Under the pieces are notes generated by a model. The model searched no databases. It saw only the letters and a program-made list of their open reading frames with translations, and was not told the origin of the DNA. The position numbers and the translations under genes were made by a program. A stretch of DNA of 64,000 bases from an uncultured Acidobacteriota bacterium. Lineage in GTDB: Bacteria; Acidobacteriota; Thermoanaerobaculia; Gp7-AA8. The stretch lies in assembly GCA_963822445.1 (NCBI GenBank), contig CAWGHO010000003.1:576001-640000 (forward strand), given 5' to 3'. Below are positions 27,491 to 61,469 of the stretch, one piece after another. Each line of letters starts with the position of its first letter. Within the stretch, counting starts at the first letter, position 1.

Positions 27491-27501
27491 ATAAGTTCCT
27501 C

Positions 27502-28296: not shown

Positions 28297-28313
28297 AGTA
28301 GCATTCGGCCCGC

Positions 28314-31803: not shown

Positions 31804-31910
31804 CCTCCGCGACATTTATCTATCTTGGCGAACTGTGTCGCGGAGGCTAGGCCAACCCAACGGGTCCGGGGCCCGTGGCCCCGGCCGCCGGAGGCCTCCC
31901 GTCGTCCCTT
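31741..31910. repeat. Long near-perfect inverted repeat (about 75-bp arms, about 21-nt AT-richer loop)
   Basis: AAGGGAACGACGGGAGGCCTCCGG...GCCTCCGCGACA and TGTCGCGGAGGC...GGCCTCCCGTCGTCCCTT, between convergent genes. Confidence 0.9.
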
Positions 31911-33107: not shown

Positions 33108-33121
33108 CGCGCCGCATCGTA

Positions 33122-39791: not shown

Positions 39792-39825
39792 GAAGTGTCC
39801 TCCTGCTCTCAATCTCAGGAGTGTT

Positions 39826-39846
39826 GCGGTGAGAAATATCCCTACC
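39826..39846 (-). promoter_or_regulatory. Shared upstream motif GGTAGGGATATTTCTCACCGC, 55 nt before the start codon
   Basis: Similar to the boxes upstream of lodA and the GT4 gene. Confidence 0.5.
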
Positions 39847-39948
39847 TATCCGTCATGAAATAGAGACGTAGGTACTACCTGACCGCCAGAAAAGGTCGAG
39901 CACCGAGGGCTGGAGCGTGGCGTCGTATTCGGTGTGGCCGGGTCATGA

Positions 39949-42414: not shown

Positions 42415-43535
42415 ACGTCGCCCATGACCTCGAGAAGTTGCCGGGCGACACGCGGCCATGCGTACTCGCTCGCGAGGCGTGCGCCGGGCGCGTGTCCGGT
42501 CACGGTGTCATCGCCGTCGACGATGCGGCGGATCACATCCGCGGCCGCGTCTTCATCGGGATTCCACCAGGAAAGGCCGTCGAAGAAGACGCGGTCTTCG
42601 ATGCCGAGCTCTCCTTCGAACGTCGCCGGTGCGAGCGGCGCGGGGATGAACGCGGCCTCGTCCTCGCAAAGGTATTCGACATACGCGGTGTGCCGCGGCG
42701 CGACGAGCTTCAGTCCGGAGACGGCGGCTTCCATCATCACGAGATCCCAACCTTCGCCGTGGGACATGGAGATGTAGTGCGTGGCGGTGCGGTAGATGGA
42801 GCGGATCTGCTCGTCGGTGCACATGCCGCTCAGGAACAGCACCGGCGCGGCCTCGGCGAGACTCCGTCCTTCGCGCTGCTGCATGGTCAGGAGGTCGGCG
42901 TGGAATTGCTGCAGGACCCGCGGCTGAAACGCGGAGCCTTTGATGATCAGGATGGCGTCGTCATCGCGGCGCGTCGCGCGCATCCAGGCGCGAAGGAGGC
43001 CGAGGTGGTTTTTTCGGGGGCGGAGCTCGGCCATGTTCAGGAAGCGCGTGCGGAAGGACGTGACCGCGCGGCCGTCGGGCAGCGCTAACGACAGCGGCTC
43101 GGCGGGCTCGAGGAAGTAATCGCTCTTCACGCCGAGAGGGGAGATGCGCACCGCGGCCTCCGGGACGCCACTCGCGACCCACGCGTCGCGCGCGGCGCTC
43201 GTCGGAACGATGGTGCAGTCCTGGGTGCGCGCGACGGGAACCCAGGCGGGCGGAATGCGATCGGCTTCGAACATCGTGTAGTTGATGTTGCGCACGCCGG
43301 GGCGCGGCTGCGGGCACATCGTGAAGTGCAGCACGGTGTCGGCTTCGATGGGTGCGGTGAGGCTCTCGAACCAGCTCTCCCGCTGTTCCGCGGGGAGCTC
43401 GATCGACCAGCCGGTGAGGGGGATGAGTTGCACGGCGACGCCGGCGTTCGCGAATCCGCGCACGAACTCCCGCGTATGCCGGTCATACCCGCTCGTTCCT
43501 CGGAACGGCCCGACAACCTGCAGTCGCTCGAGCAT
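42411..43535 (-). CDS. GT4 (GT-B) glycosyltransferase
   Basis: SGY..HTR, YTMFEADRIP, PRKN, SHGEGWDLVMMEA (EX7E); ATGA coupling to the GT2 gene. Confidence 0.9.
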   Translation of the reverse strand: MLERLQVVGPFRGTSGYDRHTREFVRGFANAGVAVQLIPLTGWSIELPAEQRESWFESLTAPIEADTVLHFTMCPQPRPGVRNINYTMFEADRIPPAWVPVARTQDCTIVPTSAARDAWVASGVPEAAVRISPLGVKSDYFLEPAEPLSLALPDGRAVTSFRTRFLNMAELRPRKNHLGLLRAWMRATRRDDDAILIIKGSAFQPRVLQQFHADLLTMQQREGRSLAEAAPVLFLSGMCTDEQIRSIYRTATHYISMSHGEGWDLVMMEAAVSGLKLVAPRHTAYVEYLCEDEAAFIPAPLAPATFEGELGIEDRVFFDGLSWWNPDEDAAADVIRRIVDGDDTVTGHAPGARLASEYAWPRVARQLLEVMGDV

Positions 43536-43566
43536 GGATCTGGATGGTCCCCGGTGAGGAGTGTAT

Positions 43567-43587
43567 GGAAGGGGATATTTCCCTACC
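43567..43587 (-). promoter_or_regulatory. Shared upstream motif GGTAGGGAAATATCCCCTTCC, 52 nt before the GT4 start
   Basis: Imperfect palindrome similar to the lodA box. Confidence 0.5.
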
Positions 43588-43628
43588 CGAAGCTGTACCG
43601 CGGCACGTTTTTCGCGATTCAGAAAGGG

Positions 43629-44234
43629 ATGAATCACTGCGCGTACTGCGCTGCACCACTGCCGGCGGGCGCGGAGTTCTGCCCGCGATGCGGGAAGAAC
43701 CTCACCGTGCCGGTTGCGACCGCTCCTCCTCCCGTTCCACCCGCCCGGCGTGCGCCCTGGTGGATCGTGCCGCTGGTGATCGTGGGCCTCGTCCTCATCG
43801 CCTTTCTCGTCCTGATGGGACTGCCATTCGGCGGCCGCGAGCCCGAACGTCGCGCCAGCGCGCCCGTGGAGACGGAGACGATCGCCGAAGCGGAGCCGGT
43901 TCCTGCGGCTGCGCGGGTGCAGACCGGAACACTTGTGGAGGTAGGGGAGGAGCGAGCCACGGAGCCCACGCCGGCCCCCGTTCAACCTCCGCCGGCCGAG
44001 GAGATCGGCGTCTCCGAAGCCATCTCGACTCTGCGCGGCTTCGTCACCTCGCGCGATTACTACGGAGTGGGTGCGGACTGCATCGGCGTCTCGAGTCTCG
44101 GCTACCAGAACGCCGGTTACACGCTCGAGGTCCGCGACTCCTGCGGCTCCCGAACGCTGGGTCGATGGCGCGTGGATTCGAAGACGCGGGAGCTCTTCCG
44201 GCAGCTGGAAGACGGCCGGTATCTGCGACCGTGA
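43629..44234 (+). CDS. Zinc-ribbon membrane protein
   Basis: MNHCAYC...FCPRCG, one TM helix, small C-terminal domain. Confidence 0.8.
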   Translation: MNHCAYCAAPLPAGAEFCPRCGKNLTVPVATAPPPVPPARRAPWWIVPLVIVGLVLIAFLVLMGLPFGGREPERRASAPVETETIAEAEPVPAAARVQTGTLVEVGEERATEPTPAPVQPPPAEEIGVSEAISTLRGFVTSRDYYGVGADCIGVSSLGYQNAGYTLEVRDSCGSRTLGRWRVDSKTRELFRQLEDGRYLRP

Positions 44235-44267
44235 ATCGGGCAATAAGTGGCGGGGGAGGAGCGTTGG

Positions 44268-44296
44268 TTGACAGGCTGGTGCCCCATCCGTATGGT
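44268..44296 (+). promoter_or_regulatory. Sigma-70 promoter of the tRNA pair
   Basis: TTGACA-N17-TATGGT followed by a GC-rich discriminator. Confidence 0.8.
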
Positions 44297-44343
44297 GCAC
44301 CCTCGCGCCGGGCCGCCAGCCCGCCGCAGTTCGTTGAAGTAGC

Positions 44344-44418
44344 GGGCCCGTAGCTCAGTGGTAGAGCACCTGGCTTTTAACCAGAGGGTCGTAGGTTCGA
44401 TCCCTACCGGGCTCACCA
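44344..44418 (+). tRNA. tRNA-Lys(TTT)
   Basis: GGGCCCG acceptor stem, TAGCTCAGTGGTAGAGC D-arm, CTTTTAA anticodon loop, GGTTCGATCC T-arm, encoded CCA. Confidence 0.96.
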
Positions 44419-44443
44419 GGTTTGCCGCCGCTGACCGCGGCGG

Positions 44444-44528
44444 AATCGAAAATTGAAAATGCAGAATTGAAAACGGCGGGGTCTGGCCCGGCTCATTTTC
44501 AATTTTCAATTTCCCAATTTTCAATTTC
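44444..44528. repeat. Inverted array of AT-rich heptamer repeats (AAATTGA-like / TCAATTT-like) in the tRNA spacer
   Basis: Read directly; the arms flank a GC-rich core. Confidence 0.8.
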
Positions 44529-44542
44529 GGCAACGCCGATCA

Positions 44543-44618
44543 GTCCCCATCGTCTAGAGGCCTAGGACATCGCCCTTTCACGGCGACAACACGGGTTCGA
44601 ATCCCGTTGGGGACGCCA
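44543..44618 (+). tRNA. tRNA-Glu(TTC)
   Basis: GTCCCCA acceptor stem, TCGCC-CTTTCAC-GGCGA anticodon arm, GGTTCGAATCC T-arm, encoded CCA. Confidence 0.97.
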
Positions 44619-44623: not shown

Positions 44624-47600
44624 CTACCTCGCGATCTCCACCTCCTTGGCAGCGGGGGTCGATCTCAGCACGACGAACCGCTGCGCCGCATCTTCCACGG
44701 CGTTGAGTGAACCGCCGCTCTCTTCCACGGCATAAGTTTCGGCGAGGATCCCTTCCTCCGCGCGGACGAACAGTCGCGTGCGTGACGCCGGCGTGCCGGT
44801 GAATCGTTGAAGAGAGTTGAGGATCGCCGCGCGCTGGGAGGCGTTCAGGGCGAGCTCCGGACCGTGCGAGTAGAACGTCGAAACGTGAATCGACAGCGTA
44901 TTCGTGGCCGGAACGAAAAAGTGGAATCGGTACCAGACGACATTCCTCGCGTCATTGTTGTCACGTCCCCACGGCGAGGCGATGGACAGGACGCCGGCAT
45001 CGGCCGACCAGCGTAGATCGTCGGGGTAGAACTGCAGCCAGTCCGTCTCCGCCGGTTCACTCGCCGCGGTATGGGCGAGCGCAGGGAATCGCTTGTCGTC
45101 ATATCCGTGCAGGTGAAGCTTGAAGAAAGGATTGCCCAGCTCCCCGGATGCCGCTTTGATCAACGGTCCCTGCGGCACGCGGCTGCTGGCGATGAAGACG
45201 CGGCCGCGGCGGTTTTCAGGTGCGGGCGTGCAGTCGCTTGGCGGTGCAACGATTCCGTCTCGACCAGCGCGTTGCGCCTGCAGTTGGTTCCAGTCCCTCA
45301 CCGGCGTGACGGCGACACGCACCGCCGGGAAGAGCTCGCCCCACTGCGCGGGCTCGTATGGCGCGCGCGAGCCGGCAACAATGACGTTCGGCTCGATGGC
45401 CAGCATCGGATCGTCGGCCGCTCGAGCGAAAAACAGCGTGACGTGATCGGTGTCGCGGCGTACGTTCTCATCCGAGAAGTAAATCGCCACGCTTCGATTC
45501 GTCTCCGCTGACTCCTGTTTCGCGAGCATCGGCAGGAAGTGCGCACTCTCAGGACGTGCGGCGATCCGCGAGTCCGGCACGCTCACCTTGAACGTCCACC
45601 AGGTCTGCTCGCGGAACGTCTGGCAGTCTTCGGGCACGGCGACGATCGTGTATTCGAATTCGTGGCGGTCGCGGTCGGTAATCGCGTCGACCCACGTGAA
45701 CTCCACGTGATCGAGATCGATGGTTTCGAGCACATCGTGTCCCGGGCGAGTGATCACAGCCAGCGGACGATTGCTTCCGGTACCGTCGACGCCCGGCCGG
45801 GTGTCGCGCCGGAAGAGCTTGAATTCGCGAACGGCCGAAAGCTCCAGCGGCCGGTCGATTCCGCTTCCTTCGAGAGGCACACGCCATCCGAGGCGTATCG
45901 TCCAGACGATGTCGGCATCGACCCATGGAAGCTTTCGCCGGACGGTCTCACCGATTGCGGTCACGGTGGCCGTCGCGGCGCTGCCACCGTTTGCGGGCGG
46001 CGCGATCGTGATGGCCGGCGCTTCTTCGTAGTCCCGGCCTCCATCCTCGATGGTGATGGCTGTAATCGCGCCGTTTTCGATCACAGCGTTCGCACGCGCG
46101 CCGGACCCTGGACGATTGTTGCCGGCGGTCAACGTGATCCCCGGTTCCTCGTCATTCGCGTAGCCGCTGCCGCCGCTCTCGACGCGAATTGCCGTGACGC
46201 CCGCCGCGCCGAACTCGCCGAATCTCACGACAGTCGACAACGCATCTCCCGCGGAGGGCAGCGGAATGGCCGTGTCGTAGGTCGCTGTGACCGGGAACGT
46301 GAAGACAGGCAGAACGAGCGAGTGCGCGCCGCGCTCGACGAGCTGCGGCTCGAGACAGAACGCCAGCTGGTTCGGATGCCGGTTGGAGTCATCGACCGAC
46401 GCGCCGAGCTGCTGTCCTACGAACCGGCGATAGATGTCGCGGTTCGTCCGGCAGGCGGCGGTTGCGGGCTGGGCAGCGCAGTCGCGATCGAAGAAGATCT
46501 TCCGCCACCGCACCGCCTCGGCATGCGCAGGAGTCACGCCCTTCACCGTGCAATCGTTCTGTGGAGGGGGAGGCGGCAGGGGCATCACCAGGTCGCGTTC
46601 TTTCTCCAGATCGAAGATCGCCGAATACGCCGCGTCGATGAACACCGACTGCGTGAGGAGAGCGTTGCCCGTACCCGCTTCGAACGTCAGTCCGCCGCTT
46701 CGAATGGTTCCGCCGATCGGGCGGCGTTCGCCATTGCCGGCGAAGACGTGGCGCGTCCACTTCAGGCGTCCTTCATCACCCGGATAGTGCCGCGGTGTAT
46801 CGTCCGCCCACGTGGCCGCGACCTCCGCATTGCAGTGAAATCCCGCGAGCACGCGCGGCTTCGCCAGCTCGGTCGCCTGTGAAGGAAGGGTGTTGTCGTC
46901 CAGCGAAACGACGAACCGGTCGTCGAAGCGGCCCGTTTCGATCAGGTCTTCACCCATGGTCACCAGCCTGGAGAATGACGCCCGGCTCACGTCATCGCGC
47001 CGGCGGGTCTCGCGACCGATCACGATGAAGCGGTCCTGGTCGCGCGTGAGCGAGAAGGGGAGCCATGCCCGGGTCGTCACTTGAACCGCGCCGCAGTGCG
47101 GGTCGGCCGCGCTGAGGTGTGCGGCGGGCTTCAGTGTTTCGGCATCCGGCATGCGGGCCTGACGGCGCCGCCAGTTTTCGCGCGACCGCGCGACGAACCG
47201 CGCGCACGCGCCTTCAAGGTCGGCGCAGTCGACCGTTTGCTCGTCGCGCGTGAGACCGCGGGCGTGCAGCGCAACCCGCCAGTGCGCGAGGGGGAGAGCG
47301 GTCTCGATCTCGATTCGGGCGTTGCGCGAAGTCGCCAGCAGCGCCGTGTCCGGAGTGACCTCGCCGTCCTGCGGTTTCACGGGGCGGCACTGGTCGTCCA
47401 TCGGCTGGAGATCGATGTAGTGCGGCCAGGCGGCGGGAGCATCCATCGGAACGCCGCGCTTGAACTCGACGGAAGCGCACGCGCCCTCACCCTCGTCTAT
47501 GAGCGCGCCGGGACCGGTCCCGGTGATGCCCACGCCGCGCACGCGAAACTCGTACGCCCGCCCGTAACGCGGATAGATCGACGTCGTTCCGATCTCGCGA

Positions 47601-49309
47601 AGGGAGATCAGCGAACCGTTGAAGCTCGGCGGTGCGAGTGCTTCGCCGAGCCGGTCGAAGGCCGCGGCCACGACGGTGCTGCCGCCTGCCCATTCGACGA
47701 AATCGGCCGGCATCGTCAGCACCGTTGGCTTTTCTTTCTTGTCCGCGGAGTGATTCTGGATGGGCTGCACGACGTAGCTTTCGCGAGGACGACGGGTGCG
47801 GAGCACGGCCTCTCCGCGCTCGTCGAAAAGTTCCCGCTCGACCGTGCAGAGCGATTTCCACTCCTCGCTCCCGGCCTCGCGGGCATCGATGCGGTATCCC
47901 TTGAATCCCGTGAAGTAGGGCGTTTCCGCCTGCGTTCCATTGACGATGGCTGAAGTGAGGGCCCGTTCCCAGGTGATGCCGACGGTGTCGTGGGGCGGGG
48001 CGTTGCGGCGCACGCTCTCCGCGGCGTCGGCGAGCTCGCGCTCCTTGTCCTTGATGAAGATGTACTCGCTCGCCTTGCCGGCCGGTTCGTGCGCCTGCGT
48101 ATGCACCGCGAACGCAAGGTCCGTGTCGGCGGTCGCGAGATGGTGGATCGGCGGGAGCGTTTGGCCGGTGGCTGCCATCCGGCGCAGTCTGCTCACCGCT
48201 TCGGCGGGGTTCCCACCAGTGTCCTGTGGATCATCGAGAAGCAAGGCCGGGGCGATCTGGCGAACGGTGACGTGTTCTGCGAAGTAGGTCGGAAGCTCGT
48301 CGCGCCGCAGCACGGTCACCACGCGCGGGCCGGTGTTCTTTGCGCGAGTCGGAACCGGCTCGAAGCCGGGCATCGCCGTGTCGCCGATGAACGGCCGTAC
48401 CCAGATGTCCAGATCGTCCCATGCGTCGGCGCCGTTCGGCAGCGAGAACCAGCGCAGGACGTGAAACATCGCGCCGACCACGGGTTCGTCGCGTGAGACG
48501 CGGCGGATGTCGGCACGCTGGTTTCGCTTCACCGACGTAGGATCGGTAGCGGTCATCGCGGCGATGAGATTCGGTTGCTGCTCGGTGCGAACACGCGAAT
48601 AAATCTGATCGCGCCGCAGCGCTTCGGCGTAGATGAGCTGTTCGGTGAGAGCGCGGTTGCGGATTGCTCCTTCGAGCGACAGAAGGGCCCGAGTGCCACC
48701 GGCGCCCGCCGCCGCTTCGACGGCTGACTGGAACGTTTCCGGACTGCGGACGACCGAATCCACACTGAAGGATTCCCGATCCTCATTGGATTTATCGGGA
48801 GGGGCCTGGTTCGCAGCCTCGACGACTGACGTCAGCGCCGAGAGCAGCTCGTTCGATGACTGGCTGAACATCCCCACGTTCGTTCCCGGAACGGGCTCGC
48901 GGGTCCAGCGGTCGAGATCGGCCAGGAAATTCGCCGAGCCGGCAAAGAGCGGCTTCCGGTCGGTGAATTCCGTCATGCTCAGCGCGCTCATCGCACCTGC
49001 GACAGCGAGGGAACCGCTGATCGTCTGAACCGTGCGCGACACGTAGTCCGGTGCGAGGCGAGCGGTTTCATTCACGCCGATCGCCACGAGCTGTTCGCTC
49101 ACTTCGTCGATGACGAGCGGGGCGAGAACAATCGGATACTCGGCAGGTGGAGCGGGCGTATTCGTCGCCGGGGTGTGCGCCAGTCTCCAGGTCGCGCCCT
49201 TGAACGGATCGTCAGCATGCCAGTCGTCGGTCCAATCGATCAGCACTTCCATTCGCCCGGGCTTGAAGAACTGGTTGATGAACGCGATGACCTTCACGTT
49301 CTCGCTCAT
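44624..49309 (-). CDS. Giant uncharacterised protein B (1561 aa), beta-rich, no signal peptide
   Basis: GGAGG RBS and ATGA overlap with protein A; motifs GYRID, WKSLC, PRYGRAYEFRVRGV; FN3-like segments; a GSGY-type repeat insert. Confidence 0.85.
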   Translation of the reverse strand: MSENVKVIAFINQFFKPGRMEVLIDWTDDWHADDPFKGATWRLAHTPATNTPAPPAEYPIVLAPLVIDEVSEQLVAIGVNETARLAPDYVSRTVQTISGSLAVAGAMSALSMTEFTDRKPLFAGSANFLADLDRWTREPVPGTNVGMFSQSSNELLSALTSVVEAANQAPPDKSNEDRESFSVDSVVRSPETFQSAVEAAAGAGGTRALLSLEGAIRNRALTEQLIYAEALRRDQIYSRVRTEQQPNLIAAMTATDPTSVKRNQRADIRRVSRDEPVVGAMFHVLRWFSLPNGADAWDDLDIWVRPFIGDTAMPGFEPVPTRAKNTGPRVVTVLRRDELPTYFAEHVTVRQIAPALLLDDPQDTGGNPAEAVSRLRRMAATGQTLPPIHHLATADTDLAFAVHTQAHEPAGKASEYIFIKDKERELADAAESVRRNAPPHDTVGITWERALTSAIVNGTQAETPYFTGFKGYRIDAREAGSEEWKSLCTVERELFDERGEAVLRTRRPRESYVVQPIQNHSADKKEKPTVLTMPADFVEWAGGSTVVAAAFDRLGEALAPPSFNGSLISLREIGTTSIYPRYGRAYEFRVRGVGITGTGPGALIDEGEGACASVEFKRGVPMDAPAAWPHYIDLQPMDDQCRPVKPQDGEVTPDTALLATSRNARIEIETALPLAHWRVALHARGLTRDEQTVDCADLEGACARFVARSRENWRRRQARMPDAETLKPAAHLSAADPHCGAVQVTTRAWLPFSLTRDQDRFIVIGRETRRRDDVSRASFSRLVTMGEDLIETGRFDDRFVVSLDDNTLPSQATELAKPRVLAGFHCNAEVAATWADDTPRHYPGDEGRLKWTRHVFAGNGERRPIGGTIRSGGLTFEAGTGNALLTQSVFIDAAYSAIFDLEKERDLVMPLPPPPPQNDCTVKGVTPAHAEAVRWRKIFFDRDCAAQPATAACRTNRDIYRRFVGQQLGASVDDSNRHPNQLAFCLEPQLVERGAHSLVLPVFTFPVTATYDTAIPLPSAGDALSTVVRFGEFGAAGVTAIRVESGGSGYANDEEPGITLTAGNNRPGSGARANAVIENGAITAITIEDGGRDYEEAPAITIAPPANGGSAATATVTAIGETVRRKLPWVDADIVWTIRLGWRVPLEGSGIDRPLELSAVREFKLFRRDTRPGVDGTGSNRPLAVITRPGHDVLETIDLDHVEFTWVDAITDRDRHEFEYTIVAVPEDCQTFREQTWWTFKVSVPDSRIAARPESAHFLPMLAKQESAETNRSVAIYFSDENVRRDTDHVTLFFARAADDPMLAIEPNVIVAGSRAPYEPAQWGELFPAVRVAVTPVRDWNQLQAQRAGRDGIVAPPSDCTPAPENRRGRVFIASSRVPQGPLIKAASGELGNPFFKLHLHGYDDKRFPALAHTAASEPAETDWLQFYPDDLRWSADAGVLSIASPWGRDNNDARNVVWYRFHFFVPATNTLSIHVSTFYSHGPELALNASQRAAILNSLQRFTGTPASRTRLFVRAEEGILAETYAVEESGGSLNAVEDAAQRFVVLRSTPAAKEVEIAR

Positions 49310-52300
49310 GCCGCCACCTCCGTGTGAGTGAAGAAGTCCGCCAGGGCGACGTGCGCGAGCTCGTCCGGTGCAGGGAGGGCGCAGATCCTCTCCGGTCCGG
49401 TCTTCTCGCGCTTGCATGCATTCGGATCGATGCCGAGAAGCGGATCGAGATCGACGGTGAAGGAGACGTCAACGGTCACGAGGAACATCTCGATCGAGGC
49501 CGTGCCGCTGACTTCGAGGTGGGTGAGGATGCTCTCCTCGCAGGCGAGCTTGAGCTGTGCCATCGCCTGCACGCGCACGAAGATGTTGACGATGCCGAGA
49601 ACGGAGGCTTTGAGCTCGAGGCGCGCCACCAGCGCGATCTCATCGAATGAGAATGACTCGTCTCCGCGCACGCCGTCGGGACTGAAGTCGAAGAGGTACG
49701 TCGCGTGCGGGCACCAGACGATGCCCAGCGTGATCGACACCGTTCCGTTCGCAACGCCGATGTCGAACGCGATGGCCAATCCACCCTCGCCGCTGATGCA
49801 GGCCACCGCCTGGAAGCAGACGCGCCGGAATGGGTTGGGGATGTCCAGACCCCCGGTCCTCGGCGGCTTCACCCGCACGGCGATCACGGTCGAAAAACGA
49901 ACCGTGAACGGCGTGACCGTGAGAGTCGGCGGACGCAGGTCCTTGAAGATGGCCCGGCCGATGTCCGGCAAGTCGAGGTCGAGCCACTTCAATCCTCCGA
50001 AGCCCTTCTTCGGCCAGTCGCCGAGGATGAACGTGAACATCGAGCCGGTATTGATGCCGGAGCGGGAGATGTCGATCGAGAGTCCGAGCCGAAAATCGAA
50101 CGTGAGATTTTCCAGCGAGCCGATTCCGAAGGGGATGCGCGGCACCGGCAGGCGCAGGCTGATCATGAAACCCTTCAGACCATCGAGGAGATCGAATCGG
50201 AAAGGCGATTTGCTGCTCCCGCTGTTGCTGCCGCCGCCGTTTCCGCCTCCGAACCCGAGGAGGCCCTTCAGTTTTTCGAGGAGCAATTCGAAGACGATCT
50301 TGAGGAGCTCGCCGCATGGCTCGAGATCGCCCGGCTTGAACGACACTGACTCGCCGGGCTTCGATTGAATGCGGCAGTTCTTCAACACGAGCAGACCGGG
50401 TACGCCGACGTCGGCCATGAGCGTCACGTCGTAATCAGCGGGGTCCTCGAAGCTCTTTTTGAACGTCGCGTTGAACGAACGCGGCGCGATCTTGATGCGG
50501 AAGGCGAGCGTCCCCTCGCACACATCACTGACGCCCTTGGTGAGCTCCGGAAATTCCACGCTCGCATCGACTTCGACCTCGGTCTTCTGATCGCGTTTGA
50601 GGTCGGGCGAGTCAGGGGTGTGGACCTGCTTGTCGTGTATGCGGATCCGCTCGTGGATGGTGAGCGTTCCCTCGTTGTCGAGGAACTCGTCGCTCTCGCC
50701 TCCGAGGACGAGTTGCAGAAGGCCGACGTCGCGAAGCTTGATCTTCCTGCGGAACGTGTGCTCCGCCTTCGCGTTGAGCTCGAACGTGTCGTTGCGCCGC
50801 AAAGGCCGGTCGACGCGCACGACTCCGTCGCCGAGGGTGAGGGCGGTCGCGGCATACTCGGGGACCTCGTCACCGGTGGTCGCGCACCATTTCCCGTCGT
50901 TGGGATTCATCGTGTTGTCGTAGGTGACTGCGACCGCGCGCGAGTCGAGGGTCATGCCGGAGACATCCTCGAGCTCGCCGCGCGCAGTGACCTCGATCTT
51001 GGGCACGTTGGCGGTGCAGCCGGGGATCGGATCGCAAGGCTTCTCGGCGTTGCCCTTCGCCGTCGCGTGCCAGATGACCTGGTGCAGCCGCATCGGCGTG
51101 TCATGAAAGAGCGTGAGCGCCTGAGGCTCACGCAGCGGTACGGTCTGCGTGAGGAATCGCGCGAGCGAAGGGTCGGCGATCACCGTGATCAGACCGATGC
51201 CCTGCAGCGTCCGGTCGCGATCGACCCAGCGCTGATCTCCATTCTTGTAGTCGATGTCGGCCTTGAAGAGCAGCGGCTCGTTCGGGTTGAAATTGACGGA
51301 ATTGATCGGCCGCAGGTTGGCGACTGTGATGTTGCCTTTGTCGCCGTACGTCTTCGATGGCTCGTTGAACCACCATTTCGTGCAGTACCGAAGCTTCCCG
51401 TTTTCCTGACGCGAGGTGAGGGTTAGGACGTTGTAGACGATCCCGTACGGCAGCAGCAGGTCGGCGAAGATGGCGTAGTTCTTCTGGTAGCGGCCGAGAA
51501 AACCGTGCAGCACGAGCTCCTGCATTCCGATCTCACGAACCTCGTTTTGCCAGTCGAATCCGATCGTCCCGCCGATGGGCGAGAGCGCGATCTCGGTTCC
51601 CGGTCTGCGCAGGGCGCGTTGGATCGACGGATTCTTCGACGGAACGACCTGCTCGTCGAAGGCAGTCCTCACGCACGACCGCAACGCTTGTGGATCGAGA
51701 TCCACGACATCGAACGCGTCGTTCACGGGCCGCATCCTGTCGGCGGCGATGGCGCGATACGGCGCGAGCGTACCGGCGAGGCAGCGTTCGTCGGGAGCCC
51801 AGTCGCGGTCCCGCAGAGGCACCAGCGTGCCATCGATGCCGAAACCGGCGTAGATGGCGCGAGTCGTCGCCCCACCTTCCGCGCCCGCCAGGGCGCTGAA
51901 GAGCTCCGCGGGAGAATGGGCGTCGCCGGCCGCCTCGCCGCTCGTTCGCGGCTCCCACATGGTGAGCTCCTGAAAGGCCGGATTGGCATTGTCCTGCCAC
52001 CTTCCGAAATCGAAGTCGCGATGTTCACGGAGCGAGAACGGTGGCAGAGCGATCGTTTTCTGTACGCGTGGCAGTGTCGCCGGCACGGCGGCGCGGAATG
52101 CCTCCTGGGCCAGCGCTACGATCTCGTCGTTCGACGCCGTGACATCGTCGACGGGATCGAGAATGCGGTAACGATCGCGATCGATCTCCCACCGAATCGT
52201 GGCCGGTCTCGCGAGCGCGATCAGGTCGCCCCGGTAGTCGTCCGTCGCCGGTGGCGTGTTCGTTTTGGTCGCTTTGAGATGCACCCAGTCGCCCGCGGCC

Positions 52301-53850
52301 GAGGGCATGCTGCTCCGCCCGGCCCATGCGGCTTCGGCGGTCTCGAAAACCAGCGTGCTGGTGTCCGCGACGTACTTGGGGCCATCCACATGAAACAGGA
52401 TGTCGAGCTCGCGCGCCGCGCGGATCCGCGCGAAAAGATCGGCGACGAGCACGAGGTCGGACGTCGCCGCCGATTCTCCTGCTGTCAGGCGCCCGCGGCC
52501 ATCGAAAACGGCGTGCTGGATGACGTTTCCGCCGTTCGGAGTGATCGCGAGCCGCGGGGCGAGCTGTCCAGTGACCGAACGAAAGACGAGCGTCGCACTC
52601 GTGAATTCGTGCTCGGTCGAGCGCGAAATCACTGTGCCTTTCTCGCGCACACTCGTGGCGACTCGTGCACGGACGACATCGTTGGACCGGACCTCGAGCT
52701 CGATGCGTGATCCGCTGCGAGGCAGCGCGATTCCGTCGAGAAGCGGCCAGATCTCGCCACCGGTTGCCTCGAAACAAAACGCCGCCGATAGTTCGGCAGG
52801 CAGCGTGGTCGTTTCGGCGGGCATGTCTGAAACCCACGCGAACGCGAAGACGTTCGCGGTATGGAAGTGCGACTCGGCGAGTACGACGCTCCCGATGACC
52901 GCGCCGCCACGCCGCCGTTCCAGCGTCGCGCCGGCGGGAATGAGCAAATCGACGAAACCCGGCCGGACCCGGACGGTGACGGTCTGCTGCGCGACGCGCA
53001 CCACGCTCACGTCGCCGTCGGGATGGGCCATTACATCGACCTCGATGGCATGGGGCAGCGGGTACTCGACGAGCGTCCAGCGAAGCTCGCGAGCTGGTCC
53101 ACCGCAATCGCTCAGGTCTCCGCGCCCGGAGCGCAGCGCCGGCTCGCGGTGAAAGCGATAGGCCTGGGCGGTCGTCGCACCCGTCGGGCGGACGAGCAGA
53201 TCGAGCTGCGGCCATCGAGCGGCAACGGTGGGCAGGGTCGAGCGTTCGGGCGTCTGACAGACCTCTGGACGCACGCAGAAATCGAACTTCAGGAGCTGAT
53301 CGCGATCCGCTTCCCGCTCGATGCGCTTTTTCGGACGGGGTGCTCCTGACACGTCGACCGTCATCGGCACGGCTTCGCCGAGCGTCGGGAAGAGAAGCTG
53401 CGGTGTCACTTCCAGAGTGAAGTCGCCGCTCGGTGCCGCGCGCAGGACGTCACTGCGCGCGATGTCGTGTTCCCGGAAGATGCGGGTGCCGGCCTTTGCG
53501 TCGATGACGACCCATACGTCGTGCATCTCCACCTGATCCGAGTCGATTTCGTCCGGGCCGGTCCCATCGACCATCGTCGCCGCGACCGCCGGGAACTGAA
53601 TGCGATTTGCCCAGATCGGAATCGGGAAGCGGGTGATCTTGCTCGCGTCGTGTGTCGTATGCACGACGAAGTCGCCTGCGGTCGAGGGGAACACCCATCG
53701 GACGGGCTTTCGAAAGCCGCTCAGCAACGAGCGGCATGCGCCGAGGATCGCGGCGGAGAACCCTTGCACTAGCCCTCGCGCGATCGTTTGCGTCTGTGTT
53801 CCCGCGGTGAAGCCGAATTGAAGGAACCGCCGCCGCGTGACGCCTTTCAT
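49306..53850 (-). CDS. Giant uncharacterised protein A (1514 aa) with a twin-arginine signal and possible lipobox
   Basis: MKGVTRRRFLQFG...SAAILGAC; C-terminal third is a run of amphipathic beta-strands (AFDIGVANGTVSITLGIVW, LKASVLGIVNIFV). Confidence 0.85.
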   Translation of the reverse strand: MKGVTRRRFLQFGFTAGTQTQTIARGLVQGFSAAILGACRSLLSGFRKPVRWVFPSTAGDFVVHTTHDASKITRFPIPIWANRIQFPAVAATMVDGTGPDEIDSDQVEMHDVWVVIDAKAGTRIFREHDIARSDVLRAAPSGDFTLEVTPQLLFPTLGEAVPMTVDVSGAPRPKKRIEREADRDQLLKFDFCVRPEVCQTPERSTLPTVAARWPQLDLLVRPTGATTAQAYRFHREPALRSGRGDLSDCGGPARELRWTLVEYPLPHAIEVDVMAHPDGDVSVVRVAQQTVTVRVRPGFVDLLIPAGATLERRRGGAVIGSVVLAESHFHTANVFAFAWVSDMPAETTTLPAELSAAFCFEATGGEIWPLLDGIALPRSGSRIELEVRSNDVVRARVATSVREKGTVISRSTEHEFTSATLVFRSVTGQLAPRLAITPNGGNVIQHAVFDGRGRLTAGESAATSDLVLVADLFARIRAARELDILFHVDGPKYVADTSTLVFETAEAAWAGRSSMPSAAGDWVHLKATKTNTPPATDDYRGDLIALARPATIRWEIDRDRYRILDPVDDVTASNDEIVALAQEAFRAAVPATLPRVQKTIALPPFSLREHRDFDFGRWQDNANPAFQELTMWEPRTSGEAAGDAHSPAELFSALAGAEGGATTRAIYAGFGIDGTLVPLRDRDWAPDERCLAGTLAPYRAIAADRMRPVNDAFDVVDLDPQALRSCVRTAFDEQVVPSKNPSIQRALRRPGTEIALSPIGGTIGFDWQNEVREIGMQELVLHGFLGRYQKNYAIFADLLLPYGIVYNVLTLTSRQENGKLRYCTKWWFNEPSKTYGDKGNITVANLRPINSVNFNPNEPLLFKADIDYKNGDQRWVDRDRTLQGIGLITVIADPSLARFLTQTVPLREPQALTLFHDTPMRLHQVIWHATAKGNAEKPCDPIPGCTANVPKIEVTARGELEDVSGMTLDSRAVAVTYDNTMNPNDGKWCATTGDEVPEYAATALTLGDGVVRVDRPLRRNDTFELNAKAEHTFRRKIKLRDVGLLQLVLGGESDEFLDNEGTLTIHERIRIHDKQVHTPDSPDLKRDQKTEVEVDASVEFPELTKGVSDVCEGTLAFRIKIAPRSFNATFKKSFEDPADYDVTLMADVGVPGLLVLKNCRIQSKPGESVSFKPGDLEPCGELLKIVFELLLEKLKGLLGFGGGNGGGSNSGSSKSPFRFDLLDGLKGFMISLRLPVPRIPFGIGSLENLTFDFRLGLSIDISRSGINTGSMFTFILGDWPKKGFGGLKWLDLDLPDIGRAIFKDLRPPTLTVTPFTVRFSTVIAVRVKPPRTGGLDIPNPFRRVCFQAVACISGEGGLAIAFDIGVANGTVSITLGIVWCPHATYLFDFSPDGVRGDESFSFDEIALVARLELKASVLGIVNIFVRVQAMAQLKLACEESILTHLEVSGTASIEMFLVTVDVSFTVDLDPLLGIDPNACKREKTGPERICALPAPDELAHVALADFFTHTEVAA

Positions 53851-54005
53851 GGACGATCGTCCTTCGCGTGCGAACCAATTCCTTCCCGGAAGTCCGCGAT
53901 CGTCTGGCCTAGCGCCCGCCCGAGCTTCGGCAGGCGCGCCGCGCCGAAAAGGAGGATAAGAATGAATACGACGAGGACGAGCTCCGGTGCTCCGAGACCG
54001 AACAT
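53847..54005 (-). CDS. tatA: Twin-arginine translocase TatA/TatE family subunit (52 aa; not in the ORF track)
   Basis: Manual translation MFGLGAPELVLVVFILILLFGAARLPKLGRALGQTIADFREGIGSHAKDDRP*: TM helix, FG hinge, amphipathic helix. Its TGA overlaps the ATG of protein A. Confidence 0.93.
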   Translation of the reverse strand: MFGLGAPELVLVVFILILLFGAARLPKLGRALGQTIADFREGIGSHAKDDRP

Positions 54006-54092
54006 TTCATCACCCCGGAGGTGAGAAGGACGCGTTCGCGAGATTTCCCCTGCGGGCTGGGACCTCCAGCGTGTTTCTGGAGTTACCGCACC

Positions 54093-54410
54093 ATGCTCTC
54101 GGAGTCCCTTCGCCTCGCGCTGATGATCTCCGGCTGTGCTTTTCTCGGCTCGCTCGAATCGATCGTCCCGCTCTATCGGGCCGGGGAAGGGCGCGTTCGC
54201 CGCGCGCTGCCCAACGTCGGCCTGACCGTCTTGCTGCTCGTGACGAATCTCGCGCTGTACTTTGCTGCGGCTTGGGCCGGGTCACAGTGCGAGACGCAGA
54301 CACCGGCGTGGTAGCACTTCGTGATCGCTTTCGCCGCGTCCACCACCCACTCCGATGAAGCGGTCGATGTCACCACCGCGTCCGGCAGCATCCCGGCGAG
54401 ACCGTCTGGC
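54093..54410 (+). pseudogene. Decayed sterol desaturase/fatty-acid hydroxylase gene
   Basis: N-terminus LESIVPL...LPNVGL, stop at 54314, then broken remnants of the His box (RVHH, HSDEAVDVTTA, RQHPGE) in different frames; the rest is missing. Confidence 0.65.
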
Positions 54411-54740
54411 GCCGATCCCCCGGCCGGAAGCATTTCGCGATCGTGAGGCATTCGCGTTGTCTCTACCGCCGTGCCCGCTGTCGGTTCTCCGGGTGGGTAC
54501 ATCGGCCACCGCCGCTGCTGCTGTTCTCGCCATTCGGCGATTCCTACTCCGTACGCGAGAAAGAGGTCTTGGCGACGCTCAGGGACGCAGAGCTCCGCCG
54601 CCCGGAAAGAGTGAAATGCCCGGCGAATCCCGCGAAGTAGCTCCACCTGCCGCAGGAAGGCGACCAGTGCCATTGCTCGCGCGCTCGGTACGCCACCGGC
54701 GACGCGCCGCTGCGCTGGTTCCCATCCGAGGAAGTCATCG

Positions 54741-57700
54741 TCACGCGGCATCTTCGTCCTTCGTGCTCGTCACGATTTCGAGCAGCCTGACCACGTGGCT
54801 TTCGAATTCGGCGAGACTGCCCCGGCTCTTCGTCAGGAACTCAGTGGGGCCGAGCTGCAGGCGCGCCTGATCGGCATGTCCGACATCGATCGCCGAGTAA
54901 ACGAGCAGGGGGACGCGTCCGAGGCTCGCAGACTCCCGCAGGTCGTTGACGACCGCGAAGCCGTCCATGTCCGGGAGGGTGAGATCGAGAACGATCAAGC
55001 TCGGCTGGTGTTGCCGGCAGACCCGGATGGCCTCGCCGCCCGTGCCGGCATGAAGAGTCCGGAAACCGCGGCTCTGAAGTGCCGTGGCCATGACGCCCGC
55101 CAGGTCGAGATCATCTTCGACGACGAGAATCGGAGGGGCGCTGGAGTGGTCCTGGTCCTGATTCGCGGTTGCCGGCTGCGCCACGATCGGCGAATTCGCC
55201 AGAGGAATCGTGAACTCAAACCGGCTGCCCGCGGGCTCGTTCTTTTCCGCCCAGATCCGGCCGCCGTGCGCATTGACGATGCTCTGGCAGATGGCAAGAC
55301 CGAGTCCCGAGCCGCCTTTGTCCCGCGAGTCCGAAGCATCCACCTGGCTGAAGCGGTCGAAGATCGTCGCCAGCTTCTGGTCGGGGACGCCTCGACCCTG
55401 ATCGGCGACGCAGAACGCGAAGTCCGCCTCTCCCGCTGTCCCGGACAACGTGACGGTCGTATTCCGTGGCGAAAACTTGATGGCGTTGCCGAGCAGGTTG
55501 GTGAGCGTCTGGATGATCCTGTCGCTGTCGCCCCGGATCGTTTCGGTCGACGTGGTCATGACGAGGCTTACCCCCGCCTCGTCGGCCATGGACTGGACTC
55601 CTTCGATGGCCTGCACCATGACCGCGCCTGCATCGACGGGCGCGAGTGTCAGCTCGACCCTGCCGGACTCGATCCGTTCCAGATCGAGAATGTCATTGAT
55701 CAGCCGGACCAGGCGATCGGTATTGCTCAGGGCGATCTGCAGCATCCGCTGCCCCTTGTCGGCGACCGGGCCGAGCATCCCGCTGCTCAGGAGGCCGAGC
55801 GCGCCGCGGATCGACGTCAGCGGCGTGCGTAATTCGTGACTGACAGTCGAGACGAACTCGCCCTTGATACGCTCGATGGCTTTCTGTTCGGTGACGTCAC
55901 GGAAAGTGACAGCGACGCCCGTCACGCGTTCCCTGCTGTCCAGGATCGGAGCGGCGAGGTAGTCGACCGGAAACGACGTGCCGTCCTTTCGCCAGAACAC
56001 CTCATGGCTGACCTGTCGCACGGCGCCATCGGCGAGGGTACTGAGGATCGGACAGTCGCTTTCGGGATAGGGGCCGCGCAGCGTCGCGTGATGCATCGTC
56101 GCGTGAGCCGGCCGGCCTACCAGTTCCGTCGCCTCCCAGCCGAGCATTCTGGCTGCCGCCGGATTCGCCATCGTGATGGCTCCCGACGGATCGACTACAC
56201 AGACGCCGTCGGCGATCGAGTTGAGGATCAATTCGTTCTTCAGGCGGAGCAGCGTGTTGACCTCCGCCACAGCTTCCGCGGCGTCTTTGCCGGCGCTCAG
56301 CTCCGCGGTCTGTTCGGCGACACGGCTCACCAGACGCCGCTCGCTCTCCCGGAGCAGGCTGAGTCGCACCCTGAAGGCGGCCAGCACCGCGCCGAACAGA
56401 CAAACGCCGCATGCGATCCGGAACCACAACGTCTGATAGAACGCCGCCCGAAACTGAAACCGCACAGGATTGCCGGCGCCGGCCCAGACCCCGTCGTTGT
56501 TGCTGCCCATCACCTCGAACCTGTAGTTCCCGGGAGGCAGGTGGGTATAGAAGGCGGTGCGACGCGTGCCCGCTTCGACCCAGGCGTCGGAAAAGCCCCG
56601 CAGCCGGTAGCGGAACCGCACTTTGGCCGGCGAGAGGAAGCTCAGCGCCGTGTAGTGAATCTCGAGACTGTGCCGGCCGGGGCCCACGGCGAGCTGATTG
56701 CCGGAGACGTTCACCGCTTTTCCGTCGAGCAGGACTTCCTCGGTCCAGACCTGGGGAGCCATCGTATTGAACGCGATGTTGTTCGGATCGATGATGGCCA
56801 CGCCCTTCACCGTGGCGAAGTAGAGACGTCCATTCCTTCCCGCCCACGCTCCCGGAGACCCGCCGTTGCATTCTGCGGACTTCATCCCGTCAGTGGCATT
56901 GAAGGTGGTGGAGTGCACACGTTTGATCCGGCCATCGGCAAAATCATTCAGCTCGCGAAGACTGACCCGGAAGATCCCGCGATTGCAGGTCATCCAAAGG
57001 TAGCCGCTGCGGTCTTCCACGATGGCGAAGACGAGCTCATTGAACAGGCCGTCTTTGACCGTGATCGATGTAACGCGGCCGTCTTTGATTCGATTGAGGC
57101 CACCTCCGTAGGTGCCGATCCAGTGGCCGCCCTGCCGATCGTGATGAAGGGAGCGAACGAAATTGCTGGACAACCCGTGCTGCACGCCGTAATTCGTGAA
57201 GACGCCGTCCTTCAGGACACTCAGTCCGCCGTCGGTCCCGATCCAGAGGCTGCCGTCAGGTGCTTCGGCCAGGGACGAAATGACGTTCCCCGGAAGGCCA
57301 TTCTTCCTGTTGAATACCTTGAAGACTCCATCGCGGTAACGGGCCAGCCCACCTCCCCGCGTTCCTATCCAGATGTTTCCCTGACGGTCCTCGACCGTAA
57401 TGCGTGCCGTATTGTCAGGAAGCCCTTCGGAGGTCTGATAGACAGTCACCTTTCCGTGCTTGTAGAGATTGACCCCCGAATTCGTTCCCAGCCAGATCCC
57501 TCCGGTGCGGTCCTCCATCACCGACCGGACGGCGTCTGAAGACATTCCGTCGCGAACGGTCACGGTTGTCATCACGCCGTCTTTCCATCGTGAGAAACCG
57601 CCGCTCGTTCCGATGAGCAGCGAGCCATCCCGCGCCTCGCGAACGCTCCACACCTGGTCGGAGTTCAGTCCTTCCAGACGGCCGATGGTCGTGAACTTGG

Positions 57701-58742: not shown

Positions 58743-58761
58743 CGTTTCATCGGCCGCTGTC

Positions 58762-61092: not shown

Positions 61093-61469
61093 CCGAGCAG
61101 AGCGTTGATCTCCTCTCCGAGCGTGACCGGGTCGAAGGGCTTGGCGATGATTCCGCGGACGCCGAGCTGCATGAAACTCTCGCGATCCGCAGCCTGAACC
61201 TTGGCTGTCAGAAAGATGACCGGAATCGCTCTGGTGGCTTCGTGTGACTGCAGGATGCGGAGTGTTCCGGGTCCGTCCATATCGGGCATCATCACGTCGA
61301 GCAGGATTGCATCGGGCGCACACGCCCCGGCCACGGCGATGCCCGCCGCGCCGCCGTTTGCGGTGGTGATCGTCCAACCCTGGGTCATTTCCAGGCTCAG
61401 GCCGGCCACCTCACGGATATCGTCTTCGTCGTCGATCAGGAGCAGGTGTCTGGGCTGCACGTAATCCAT
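61083..61469 (-). CDS. Single-domain response regulator (REC)
   Basis: LLIDDEDD, PDAILLDVMMPDMDG, VIFLTA, IAKPFD. Confidence 0.93.
   Translation of the reverse strand: MDYVQPRHLLLIDDEDDIREVAGLSLEMTQGWTITTANGGAAGIAVAGACAPDAILLDVMMPDMDGPGTLRILQSHEATRAIPVIFLTAKVQAADRESFMQLGVRGIIAKPFDPVTLGEEINALLGWS

Follow-up and report, generated by a model that had tools for sequence, protein, structure and literature searches.

Gene Content and Organization of the Locus

Three genes lie on the minus strand of the window (the whole 64,000 nt stretch of DNA that was analysed, C3:576001-640000) in the order tatA-A-B, and both junctions between them are ATGA overlaps. The first gene (53847..54005) specifies a 52 aa TatA paralogue that matches PF02416 and is the third TatA-family gene of this genome. 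Gene A (49306..53850, minus strand) codes for an orphan protein of 1514 aa (165.8 kDa), mostly beta and Cys-rich, with a predicted N-terminal export signal. Gene B (44624..49309, minus strand) codes for a second orphan of 1561 aa (171.2 kDa) that is without a signal peptide and is translationally coupled to A; its start was placed at an ATG inside a 1597 aa ORF, and the same start is found in nine homologues. The initial annotation had described a three-gene operon with ATGA overlaps, and every coordinate and length was borne out. Since A and B have full-length homologues, at protein identities of 44–76% and 39–65%, respectively, they are real genes rather than ORFs that arose by chance in a GC-rich genome.

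The left edge of the cassette is set by a tRNA-Glu(UUC) gene (44543..44618, plus strand; ARAGORN and sequence), whose 3' end is at a distance of 5 nt from the B stop codon. The partner of this tRNA gene, tRNA-Lys(UUU) (44344..44418, plus strand; ARAGORN), is close by, and the two are also found together in congeners, where different DNA follows them. The cassette lies directly beside the tRNA-Glu gene, within a variable region. A search of the window for a repeated tRNA-Glu 3' end was negative, and the ORFs scanned there include no integrase or other phage gene. As had been noted earlier, tatB and tatC are absent from the window; the sole TatC match of the genome is at C3:1845455-1846087.

The Cassette TatA

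The 52 aa protein matches PF02416 (mttA/Hcf106) over residues 4-49 (E=1.3e-14; 53.6 bits, cut-off 21) and falls slightly below the cut-off of TIGR01411 (TatA/E; 50.5 bits vs. 53.9). TatA models outrank TatB models, with TIGR01410 (tatB) reaching 26 bits. Glu8, a Phe20-Gly21 hinge and Phe39 in the amphipathic helix can be recognized. The residue at position 8 is Glu instead of Gln, as it also is in the genome's other TatA; Gln8 and Phe39 are described as important in TatA in the available text of PMC4148689. With PF02416 matched well above its cut-off, and the FG hinge and Phe39 kept, the earlier assignment of this small gene to TatA stands.

A profile search of the host genome retrieved three TatA-family genes and one tatC, the latter 1.2 Mb from the cassette and adjoined by a gene for a 114 aa TatA/B-family protein. 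These numbers, and the identity of only 50% to the host's stand-alone TatA, indicate that the cassette carries an extra copy. Its identity to the tatA genes found upstream of A homologues is 51–62%, and the values fall in the same order for TatA (62/60, 57 and 51%) as for the A proteins (59, 54 and 44%), which fits co-inheritance. Only length distinguishes the cassette TatA from the housekeeping copy (50–53 aa vs. 64 aa), and it is otherwise without special features.

The Predicted N-Terminal Signal of Protein A

Judged by its sequence, protein A carries a predicted N-terminal twin-arginine signal that terminates in a lipobox cysteine. It begins MKGVTRRRFLQ, the twin-arginine motif T-R-R-R-F-L-Q occupying residues 5-11 (53818..53838, minus strand), and the sequence I-L-G-A-C places a cysteine at residue 39. 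The putative signal comprises 38 residues and is followed by Cys39 (53734..53850, minus strand). The motif, in the form [ST]RRxF[LIVF], is present in all 11 distinct close homologues that have an intact N-terminus and, when P0049 is taken as the full-length form of P0027, in six of seven distant homologues (25–28% identity), the exception being P0032. Around the conserved RR, the remainder of the N-terminal 60 residues is variable. Lack of conservation of this motif had been named in the initial annotation as grounds for dropping a Tat-dependent reading, which therefore survives on this point.

The cysteine is similarly conserved. All 11 close homologues have it at residue 38 or 39, preceded at positions -3 to -1 by L/A/I/V, G/A/V/S and A/G, and it occurs in six of the seven distant relatives, some of them with weaker -3 residues, but is absent from P0033. 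The distance from RR to Cys is about 33 residues in both clades. A possible lipobox at Cys39 had been suggested for A, and the conservation of RR and Cys across two deeply diverged clades bears this out. The layout of the predicted signal is bipartite, which is atypical of a Tat signal, and the RR-to-Cys spacing of 33 is long: RRRFLQ is followed by 16 uncharged yet polar (Q/T/G-rich) residues, a conserved basic residue, a moderately hydrophobic stretch of 14 residues and then the Cys. In the close homologues, the 14-residue segment that precedes the Cys has a mean Kyte-Doolittle hydropathy of 0.9-1.4. Genes for lipoprotein processing are present in the host genome, namely Lgt (PF01790, E=1.3e-55) and signal peptidase II, LspA (PF01252, E=5.8e-40), as are Omp85-family genes. 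The substrates of Tat are recognised to include a class of lipoproteins, according to the accessible text of PMC13673990.

Families and Predicted Folds of Proteins A and B

No match to A was detected in Pfam (E<=0.1), NCBIfam, PHROG, PADLOC or PDB, and a Pfam scan of all 15 A-family members at E<=1 showed no family in common. The likeness to AsmA/TamB or DUF6603 that had been considered for A is not supported, there being no corresponding profile match in either of these scans. For B, there was likewise no match in Pfam, NCBIfam, PADLOC or PDB, and no family was shared when every member of its alignment was scanned against Pfam at E<=1. Sequence and profile searches of PDB with both proteins gave either no match or matches attributable to chance (E>0.3), and their ESM Atlas matches are unnamed clusters only. 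The two proteins are not paralogues, as indicated by an hhalign probability of 0.1 between them. Six Cys are invariant over all 15 aligned A sequences and five over 10 B sequences; conserved Cys are typical of extracytoplasmic proteins.

The N-terminus of B has neither an RR motif nor a hydrophobic stretch, and this is conserved in 10 sequences, so that the absence of a signal peptide, stated in the initial annotation, is confirmed both from B itself and by comparison. Residues 1036-1135 of B form a GGSGY-type repeat domain (45905..46204, minus strand) that matches PHROGs of phage tail-fibre, baseplate and virion proteins (best match phrog_5342, E=1.9e-10). A profile search for distant relatives of B added only short, domain-level matches (P0044-P0047).

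AlphaFold2 models were of low confidence for both proteins. For A residues 365-1514 (12-row alignment), the mean pLDDT was 48.6 and only residues 365-510, a beta-sandwich, were confident; a Foldseek comparison of the model with PDB gave meaningless matches only (TM-scores 0.04-0.08). Readings of the proteins as AsmA-like or as Tc/RHS-type toxins were rejected, their sole pointers being Foldseek rows at TM 0.03-0.08, with no RHS or AsmA profile matches. As to the C-terminus of A, described initially as long amphipathic beta-strand, long strands are seen there solely in the low-confidence model. For B residues 362-1561 (11 rows; mean pLDDT 47.7), Foldseek gave weak local hits to FN3/chitin-binding beta-sandwiches (1va9, prob 0.97; 3uam, 1.00; 6x3a, 0.84), all at E>1e-3. 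FN3/Ig-like segments, which had also been proposed for B, are thus suggested by local hits on a low-confidence model and by the PHROG match of the repeat domain, but find no support in Pfam.

Linkage and Distribution

A short tatA gene is found immediately upstream of A in five of six loci, joined to it by an ATGA or TGATG overlap, and the ATGA overlap between A and B is present in all six. The flanking genes are unrelated between the loci carrying A-B; in locus L010, for example, they are AAA_25/DUF3854 and CHAT genes. Homologues without an adjacent tatA had been named beforehand as evidence against a functional coupling, and the linkage proved to be maintained in five of the six loci despite the differing flanks. 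The sixth, L006, carries A and B with no tatA within 14.7 kb and no tatA remnant, which means that the private TatA is not obligatory. TatC was absent among the large ORFs scanned in the related loci.

In an exhaustive profile search of 1.84 billion representatives there were 22 hits, and the family was not found in 24 congeners or in 400 genomes of the phylum. The idea, offered in the initial annotation, of a widespread but unannotated giant gene pair is not supported, since the family is very rare. Searches of viral contigs gave 22 pattern matches, none of which proved to be a relative. The best reading of tatA-A-B is that of a compact, horizontally moving cassette.

Proposed Export Pathway and Alternatives

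We incline, with some reserve, to the view that the cassette moves horizontally and encodes a giant lipoprotein, A, that depends on Tat for export and is provided with a TatA of its own, B being a probable hitch-hiker. Protein A would fold in the cytoplasm and be recognised by the host's single TatC together with the adjacent TatA/B-family protein. It would then be translocated through a site made largely of cassette TatA, produced in step with its 166-kDa cargo. Lgt would lipidate Cys39, LspA would then cleave off the signal, and A would end up with a lipid anchor outside the cytoplasmic membrane of its diderm host. Protein B, signal-less and coupled to A, would most likely attach to A while both are still in the cytoplasm and cross as a hitch-hiker, although this step, taken alone, is something we would hold a little less likely to be right than wrong. 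The exported product may be a beta-rich, Cys-rich envelope or surface structure, and the phage-fibre-like repeat domain and Ig/FN3-like pieces of B hint, with low confidence, at binding over catalysis. The first interpretation of tatA-A-B as a whole is partly supported; we infer only, as it did, that A and B may form a heterodimer, that B may be co-exported, that the TatA may be specific for its substrate, and that the product may function in adhesion, as a lipid bridge or in toxin delivery.

Size is a point against the proposed pathway. Natural Tat cargo has a quoted upper size of "over 140 kDa" in the available text of PMC13673990, and mature A alone, at 162 kDa, would lie above this figure. 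A bolder version is that Tat exports A and B as a ready-made complex of about 333 kDa, over twice the size of the largest natural cargo so quoted, and can do so because the cargo-encoded TatA builds an outsized site on host TatBC, the bipartite signal being an adaptation to recruit that TatA or to hold the cargo until B binds. This we offer tentatively, as an unlikely possibility.

Alternatively, Tat might export A only, with B remaining in the cytoplasm as an assembly factor, as an enzyme acting on A before export or in an unrelated role, or leaving by another route. The lack of a signal in B would agree with this, as would the combined size of the two proteins (333 kDa), which is more than double the maximum for Tat cargo quoted in the same available text. 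On the other hand, B is as big as A, strictly co-inherited with it and ATGA-coupled to it in 6/6 loci, and it holds conserved Cys and a domain otherwise belonging to exposed phage fibre and virion proteins; the local fold hits of its weak model are to extracellular FN3/Ig domains. We know of no precedent for a dedicated chaperone of 171 kDa, and consider export of A by itself to be rather unlikely. It would be more unlikely still that A starts with a Tat signal-anchor that stays uncleaved ("class III" substrate) in place of a lipoprotein signal, with another role for the Cys. Its hydrophobic stretch is only moderate, the Cys is missing from the distant relative P0033, and conservation of C-R-S, beyond the lipobox, in the close clade suggests additional constraints; yet residues -3 to -1 obey lipobox rules in 11/11 close homologues, and typical Asp/Gly/Ser/Pro-rich linkers follow the Cys in the distant P0032 and P0034.

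We also give little credence to the cassette tatA being a generic, tatE-like spare copy that travels along and affects A through TatA dosage only. Its ordinary TatA motifs, with no distinguishing residues, and the ability of L006 to do without it could be read in this way, but the gene overlaps the start codon of A tightly in 5/6 loci, with A identity down to 44% and unrelated flanks, and we estimate that one of about three tatA genes would very rarely come to adjoin a given gene by chance. Finally, the cassette could be unrelated to export: A and B might belong to a mobile element, as cytoplasmic proteins or as proteins that form particles, and another purpose might be served by the RR motif and the TatA-like gene. 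Its position beside tRNA genes in a variable region, the B domain common to phage structural proteins, and the AAA_25/DUF3854 and CHAT genes that flank it in L010 are compatible with such an origin. However, no relative turned up in viral contigs, A has no PHROG match and B only that of the short repeat domain (1036-1135), and no integrase or phage gene was seen among the scanned ORFs of the window. Nor would such a reading readily account for a canonical S/T-R-R-x-F-L at residues 5-11 that is kept at 25% identity and has a genuine TatA beside it, and we regard a cassette without a role in export as highly improbable.

If exported as predicted, the product of this preferred reading, a TatA-served lipoprotein with its probable hitch-hiker, would far exceed in size any other cargo proposed for folded-protein (Tat) export. 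How folded proteins of widely varying size get through Tat while the membrane stays tight is an open question, as is whether a size limit follows from the number of TatA protomers. Here, a natural cassette has a TatA gene welded to a predicted cargo above any natural substrate size quoted in the accessible text of PMC13673990, with a signal conserved down to 25% identity. The cassette thus offers a testable system for cargo-size scaling, for the specificity of TatA paralogues and for extreme hitch-hiking. With A and B, two orphan protein families of about 1500 residues each are defined as well, neither of which has a Pfam, NCBIfam or PDB relative. A full-text literature search found no description of a giant lipoprotein pair whose genes are coupled to one for TatA.

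Comparison with Known Tat Systems

In Bacillus subtilis, the phoD-tatAd-tatCd operon combines a cargo gene with Tat components, and PhoD is an enzyme of ordinary size. The cassette resembles this arrangement (and TatAy/TatCy) in that a TatA paralogue shares an operon with a putative Tat cargo gene. The B. subtilis system also includes a dedicated TatC, whereas the cassette has TatA only and the single host tatC is 1.2 Mb away; in place of PhoD are two orphan proteins of about 1500 aa each. TatA paralogues with a substrate preference are described in the available text of PMC13673990 and PMC4148689, and those of B. subtilis differ in substrate compatibility (available text of PMC13673990).

Escherichia coli TatE and Campylobacter jejuni TatA2 are similar in being additional TatA-type genes located away from tatBC, with paralogue-dependent substrates (PMC4148689 and PMC13673990, in the text available). 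They serve several ordinary redox enzymes, while the cassette TatA gene sits before a gene for a giant candidate cargo. C. jejuni TatA2 is without Gln8 and Phe39, as given in the accessible part of PMC4148689; the cassette TatA has Glu8 and keeps Phe39. The cassette tatA overlaps the start codon of A; no such overlap with a giant cargo gene is described for TatE or TatA2 in the accessible portions of PMC4148689 and PMC13673990.

The pairing of an RR-bearing A with an adjoining signal-less B recalls the hitch-hiker complexes, such as the hydrogenase small/large subunits, DmsAB and formate dehydrogenase alpha/beta. In Tat hitch-hiking, one subunit has the RR signal and the signal-less product of the adjacent gene is co-exported with it. 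The known examples are redox enzymes that carry cofactors. A and B show neither cofactor motifs nor matches to a family, and their predicted total is 333 kDa. The quoted size record, over 140 kDa, is held by formate dehydrogenase alpha/beta (available text of PMC13673990).

With its RR motif and lipobox Cys, protein A also resembles the Tat-dependent lipoproteins of Streptomyces and haloarchaea. Known Tat lipoproteins are ordinary-sized, and A differs from them in its predicted mature size of 162 kDa, in the distance of about 33 residues from RR to Cys with a conserved basic residue mid-way, and in having a TatA gene attached. In the terms used in the accessible text of PMC13673990, where class II Tat substrates are those with an RR motif and, after it, a lipobox Cys at which signal peptidase II cleaves, A would be a giant member of that class.

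A TatA-family gene in an overlapping cassette with two giant orphan genes

The cassette consists of three genes on the minus strand, tatA (52 aa, 53847-54005), the gene for protein A (1514 aa, 49306-53850) and that for protein B (1561 aa, 44624-49309). An ATGA motif forms the overlap between the tatA stop and the A start, and likewise between the A stop and the B start, so that the three-gene arrangement described in the initial annotation is confirmed in coordinates, lengths and overlaps. The B start is an internal ATG within a 1597-aa ORF, and is common to nine homologues. The masses are 165.8 kDa for A (161.6 kDa past residue 39) and 171.2 kDa for B.

The 52-aa protein scored 53.6 bits against the TatA/B/E profile PF02416 (cut-off 21), and TatA models outranked TatB among the NCBIfam families, with TIGR01411 at 50.5 bits, slightly under its cut-off of 53.9. 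Glu at position 8, the Phe-Gly hinge and Phe39 are all kept. The window's genome (6.0 Mb in three contigs, 94.7% complete) carries three TatA-family genes and one tatC. Directly before tatC is a 114-aa TatA/B-family gene (at 1.845 Mb of contig C3, which also carries the window), and a stand-alone 64-aa TatA is encoded on contig 2. The cassette TatA shares 50% identity with the stand-alone protein and 46% with the tatC-linked copy, and is therefore no recent duplicate.

Conserved bipartite signal predicted for protein A

Protein A begins with MKGVTRRRFLQ and has the residues I-L-G-A-C ending at Cys39. The N-terminus is intact in thirteen close homologues, 11 of them distinct (two loci duplicate database entries). 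The RR motif, on whose conservation the Tat reading of the initial annotation depended, is present in 11/11 of these as [ST]RRxF[LIV] at residues 5-6, and in 6/7 members of a distant clade. In all 11, residue 38 or 39 is also a Cys, and the residues before it conform to a lipobox. The database entries of two relatives, P0005 and P0009, are truncated; in its complete form (locus L009), the gene of the latter encodes T-R-R-S-F-L-K. In the distant clade, the motif is seen directly in five proteins; the sixth, P0027, is a short gene call, and P0049 from the same cluster, which starts 27 residues further upstream, has T-R-R-W-F-L and Cys40. No RR occurs in P0032, whose start is 17 residues before its Cys. 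A Cys follows a hydrophobic stretch in 6/7 distant relatives, and is missing from P0033.

About 33 residues separate RR and Cys in both clades, with little variation even at 25% identity, and a conserved basic residue lies some 17-19 residues past the RR. The order of elements in the family is RR, 12-16 polar uncharged residues, the basic residue, 14-18 moderately hydrophobic residues (mean hydropathy 0.9-1.4), and Cys. The signal predicted for A (residues 1-39; 53734-53850, minus strand) and its homologues is bipartite, and this layout is atypical. By sequence inspection, the N-terminus of B has neither an RR motif nor a hydrophobic stretch.

Linkage of the three genes in related loci

Five related loci were recovered, one from a Thermoanaerobaculia MAG (L006; one true relative among 88 pattern matches) and four from metagenomes (L007-L010; four among 423). 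In four of the five, a gene for a TatA of 50-53 aa comes right before A, with the tatA stop and A start overlapping as ATGA in L007 and L008, and as TGATG in L009 and L010. L006 has neither tatA nor a remnant of it within 14.7 kb. B follows A in 5/5 loci, always via ATGA, and is incomplete where the contig ends. With the window counted, A and B are coupled in 6/6 loci and tatA is linked in 5/6; the linkage put forward initially is borne out, with L006 as the exception. Measured against the window copies, the TatA proteins (62, 60, 57 and 51% identity) rank in the same order as the A proteins (59, 59, 54 and 44%).

In the window, the neighbours of the cassette are genes for hybrid histidine kinases and glycosyltransferases; in L009 its neighbour encodes an MFS transporter, and in L006 a UDP-glycosyltransferase. 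The L010 flanks (1626-9535 and 19727-20443) carry AAA_25/DUF3854 (plasmid/primase-like) and CHAT/caspase-like genes and a 1539-aa ORF that matches no Pfam family, surroundings that resemble a mobile or defence-island setting. Since the flanks are unrelated between loci, the inherited unit is tatA-A-B. Judged by sequence, the cassette gene is a bona fide TatA-family member overlapping a giant gene with a conserved RR and lipobox-like Cys, and the unit is conserved across loci, including an apparently signal-less giant partner translationally coupled to A.

Distribution and domain features of A and B

Across 5.8 billion protein clusters, word-indexed searching retrieved nine homologues of A (44-74% identity) and ten of B (38-64%, one a fragment), plus one further weak, short match to B (E=8.5e-5 over 5% of its length). 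An exhaustive HMMER search with a profile of the C-terminal 1150 residues of A (six rows: the window and five loci) picked out no more than 22 proteins from 1.84 billion representatives at E<=0.001. These form two groups, the close clade and the distant clade of seven full-length proteins (P0027, P0028 and P0030-P0034; 1437-1514 aa, 25-28% identity). A was not found in 24 same-genus genomes (including the unpublished G002) and 16 further relatives (0/40), nor in 400 other genomes sampled across the phylum. Because A is so scarce in both profile and genome searches, the suggestion that the gene pair is widespread is unsupported.

No Pfam family was detected in A, B, or any of the 15 A-family and 10 B-family members, and the proposed likeness of A to AsmA or DUF6603 failed on this count. 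NCBIfam, PADLOC and PDB held no relatives of either protein, and direct comparison ruled out A and B as paralogues. Six Cys are invariant across all 15 aligned A sequences, and five across 10 B sequences.

The AlphaFold2 models of A (residues 365-1514, mean pLDDT 48.6) and B (residues 362-1561, mean pLDDT 47.7) are poor because the alignments are too shallow. At that mean pLDDT, the A model is mostly beta-strand with one confident beta-sandwich (residues 365-510); the part of A kept between the two clades is the C-terminal two thirds. The low-confidence B model gave local matches to FN3 and chitin-binding-like beta-sandwiches, with E above 1e-3. At residues 1036-1135, B has a match (best E=1.9e-10) to a GGSGY-type repeat domain that occurs in proteins of phage tail fibres, baseplates and virions. 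Residues 450-600 (47510-47962, minus strand) weakly resemble P0045, an uncharacterised 1299-aa protein named for Roseateles saccharophilus (29% over 164 residues, pairwise E=2e-6), and two metagenome proteins similar to P0045 also match weakly. The shared motifs lie around G-Y-R-I-D and R-Y-G-R, and none of these three proteins has a Pfam match.

Genomic setting

Two plus-strand tRNA genes, tRNA-Lys(UUU) (44344-44418) and tRNA-Glu(UUC) (44543-44618), adjoin the cassette, the 3' end of the latter being 5 nt from the B stop codon; the initial annotation does not list them. Both had matches in 30/30 congeners searched (G002 and G430 among them, two genomes that, apart from the search for A, underlie none of the other claims). 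In the congeners G024 and G018, the tRNA pair directly follows homologues of window 32.1-35.5 kb, and nothing in the window corresponds to the DNA that lies beyond their tRNA-Glu. On the opposite side of the cassette, G435 has a homologue (72% identity) of the kinase encoded at 54741-58829; similarity stops at the kinase stop codon, and in G435 a small receiver protein takes the place of the cassette. As congener DNA differs beyond both tRNA-Glu and the kinase stop, this is a variable region at a tRNA hotspot. Another congener, G432 (locus L019), has an att-like scar, a 53-nt repeat of the 3' half of tRNA-Glu lying 650 nt downstream. A search of the 64-kb window gave no such repeat, and no integrase was found among its scanned ORFs. 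The location of the cassette fits its presumed acquisition by horizontal transfer.

A minus-strand block at 35531-44320 carries GT1 (42411-44300) and GT2 (39949-42459) genes and two ORFs without Pfam matches (37896-39812 and 36352-37899). In G024 and G018 the tRNA pair comes straight after the conserved genes, with this block missing from the interval, so within the genus the sequence varies to either side of the tRNAs. Between the tRNA genes is an A/T-rich palindromic repeat (44437-44530) that looks like a REP- or MITE-like element; genus genomes hold many copies on both strands at about 80% identity, one lying just past the right end of the window (G000, the window's own genome, C3:640712-640836). 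The stretch 54097-54412, between tatA and the kinase, recurs at 68-82% nucleotide identity in several of the congeners, where the contigs that carry it are unrelated to the tRNA locus. Lying at the right edge of the cassette, it may represent a gene remnant, and an overlapping 97-aa ORF (54021-54314, plus strand) has no Pfam match. Upstream of the cassette are tandem paralogous hybrid sensor kinases (54741-58829 and 58762-61377, minus strand) with Reg_prop/Y_Y_Y or CHASE8, then PAS, HisKA, HATPase and receiver domains; their 300-nt stretches are 71-78% identical at a spacing of 4.0 kb. Genes at 23768-34555 for an S13 D-Ala-D-Ala carboxypeptidase-like protein, a serine beta-lactamase-family protein with DUF3471, an M13 peptidase and a BlaR1-type M56 peptidase are unrelated to the cassette finding.

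Proposed export route and comparison with known Tat systems

The host genome encodes TatC, Lgt, LspA and Omp85-family proteins. In the route we propose, A would be a class II Tat substrate, a class comprising lipoproteins (as described in PMC13673990), and the cassette TatA would supply protomers that suit so large a cargo in quantity and perhaps in properties. B would bind A before export and then hitch-hike, and the product would be anchored by lipid, forming an envelope or surface structure that serves in binding. We somewhat favour the core of this scheme, that A is Tat-targeted and functionally tied to the cassette TatA; hitch-hiking by B is put forward tentatively, and any specific function for the product is considerably more doubtful. 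Of the initial interpretation, the export signal and TatA linkage stand, while the wide distribution and the AsmA/DUF6603 likeness do not. What is new is a candidate substrate-linked TatA paralogue with a candidate Tat lipoprotein, a cargo size that would be unprecedented, and two orphan families.

In Pseudomonas stutzeri, a tatE gene lies within the nos cluster. Known TatA paralogues that prefer particular substrates include E. coli TatE and B. subtilis TatAd, TatAy and TatAc, covered in a 2026 review (PMC13673990), and C. jejuni TatA1 and TatA2 (PMC4148689). The same review gives natural Tat cargo sizes 'from <10 kDa ... to over 140 kDa' (PMC13673990). Compared with these known TatA paralogue systems, the present one differs in that TatA alone is cassette-borne and TatC is not, in that tatA overlaps the start codon of its putative cargo, in that this cargo would be an orphan 166-kDa putative lipoprotein with a 171-kDa partner, and in that the predicted signal is bipartite.
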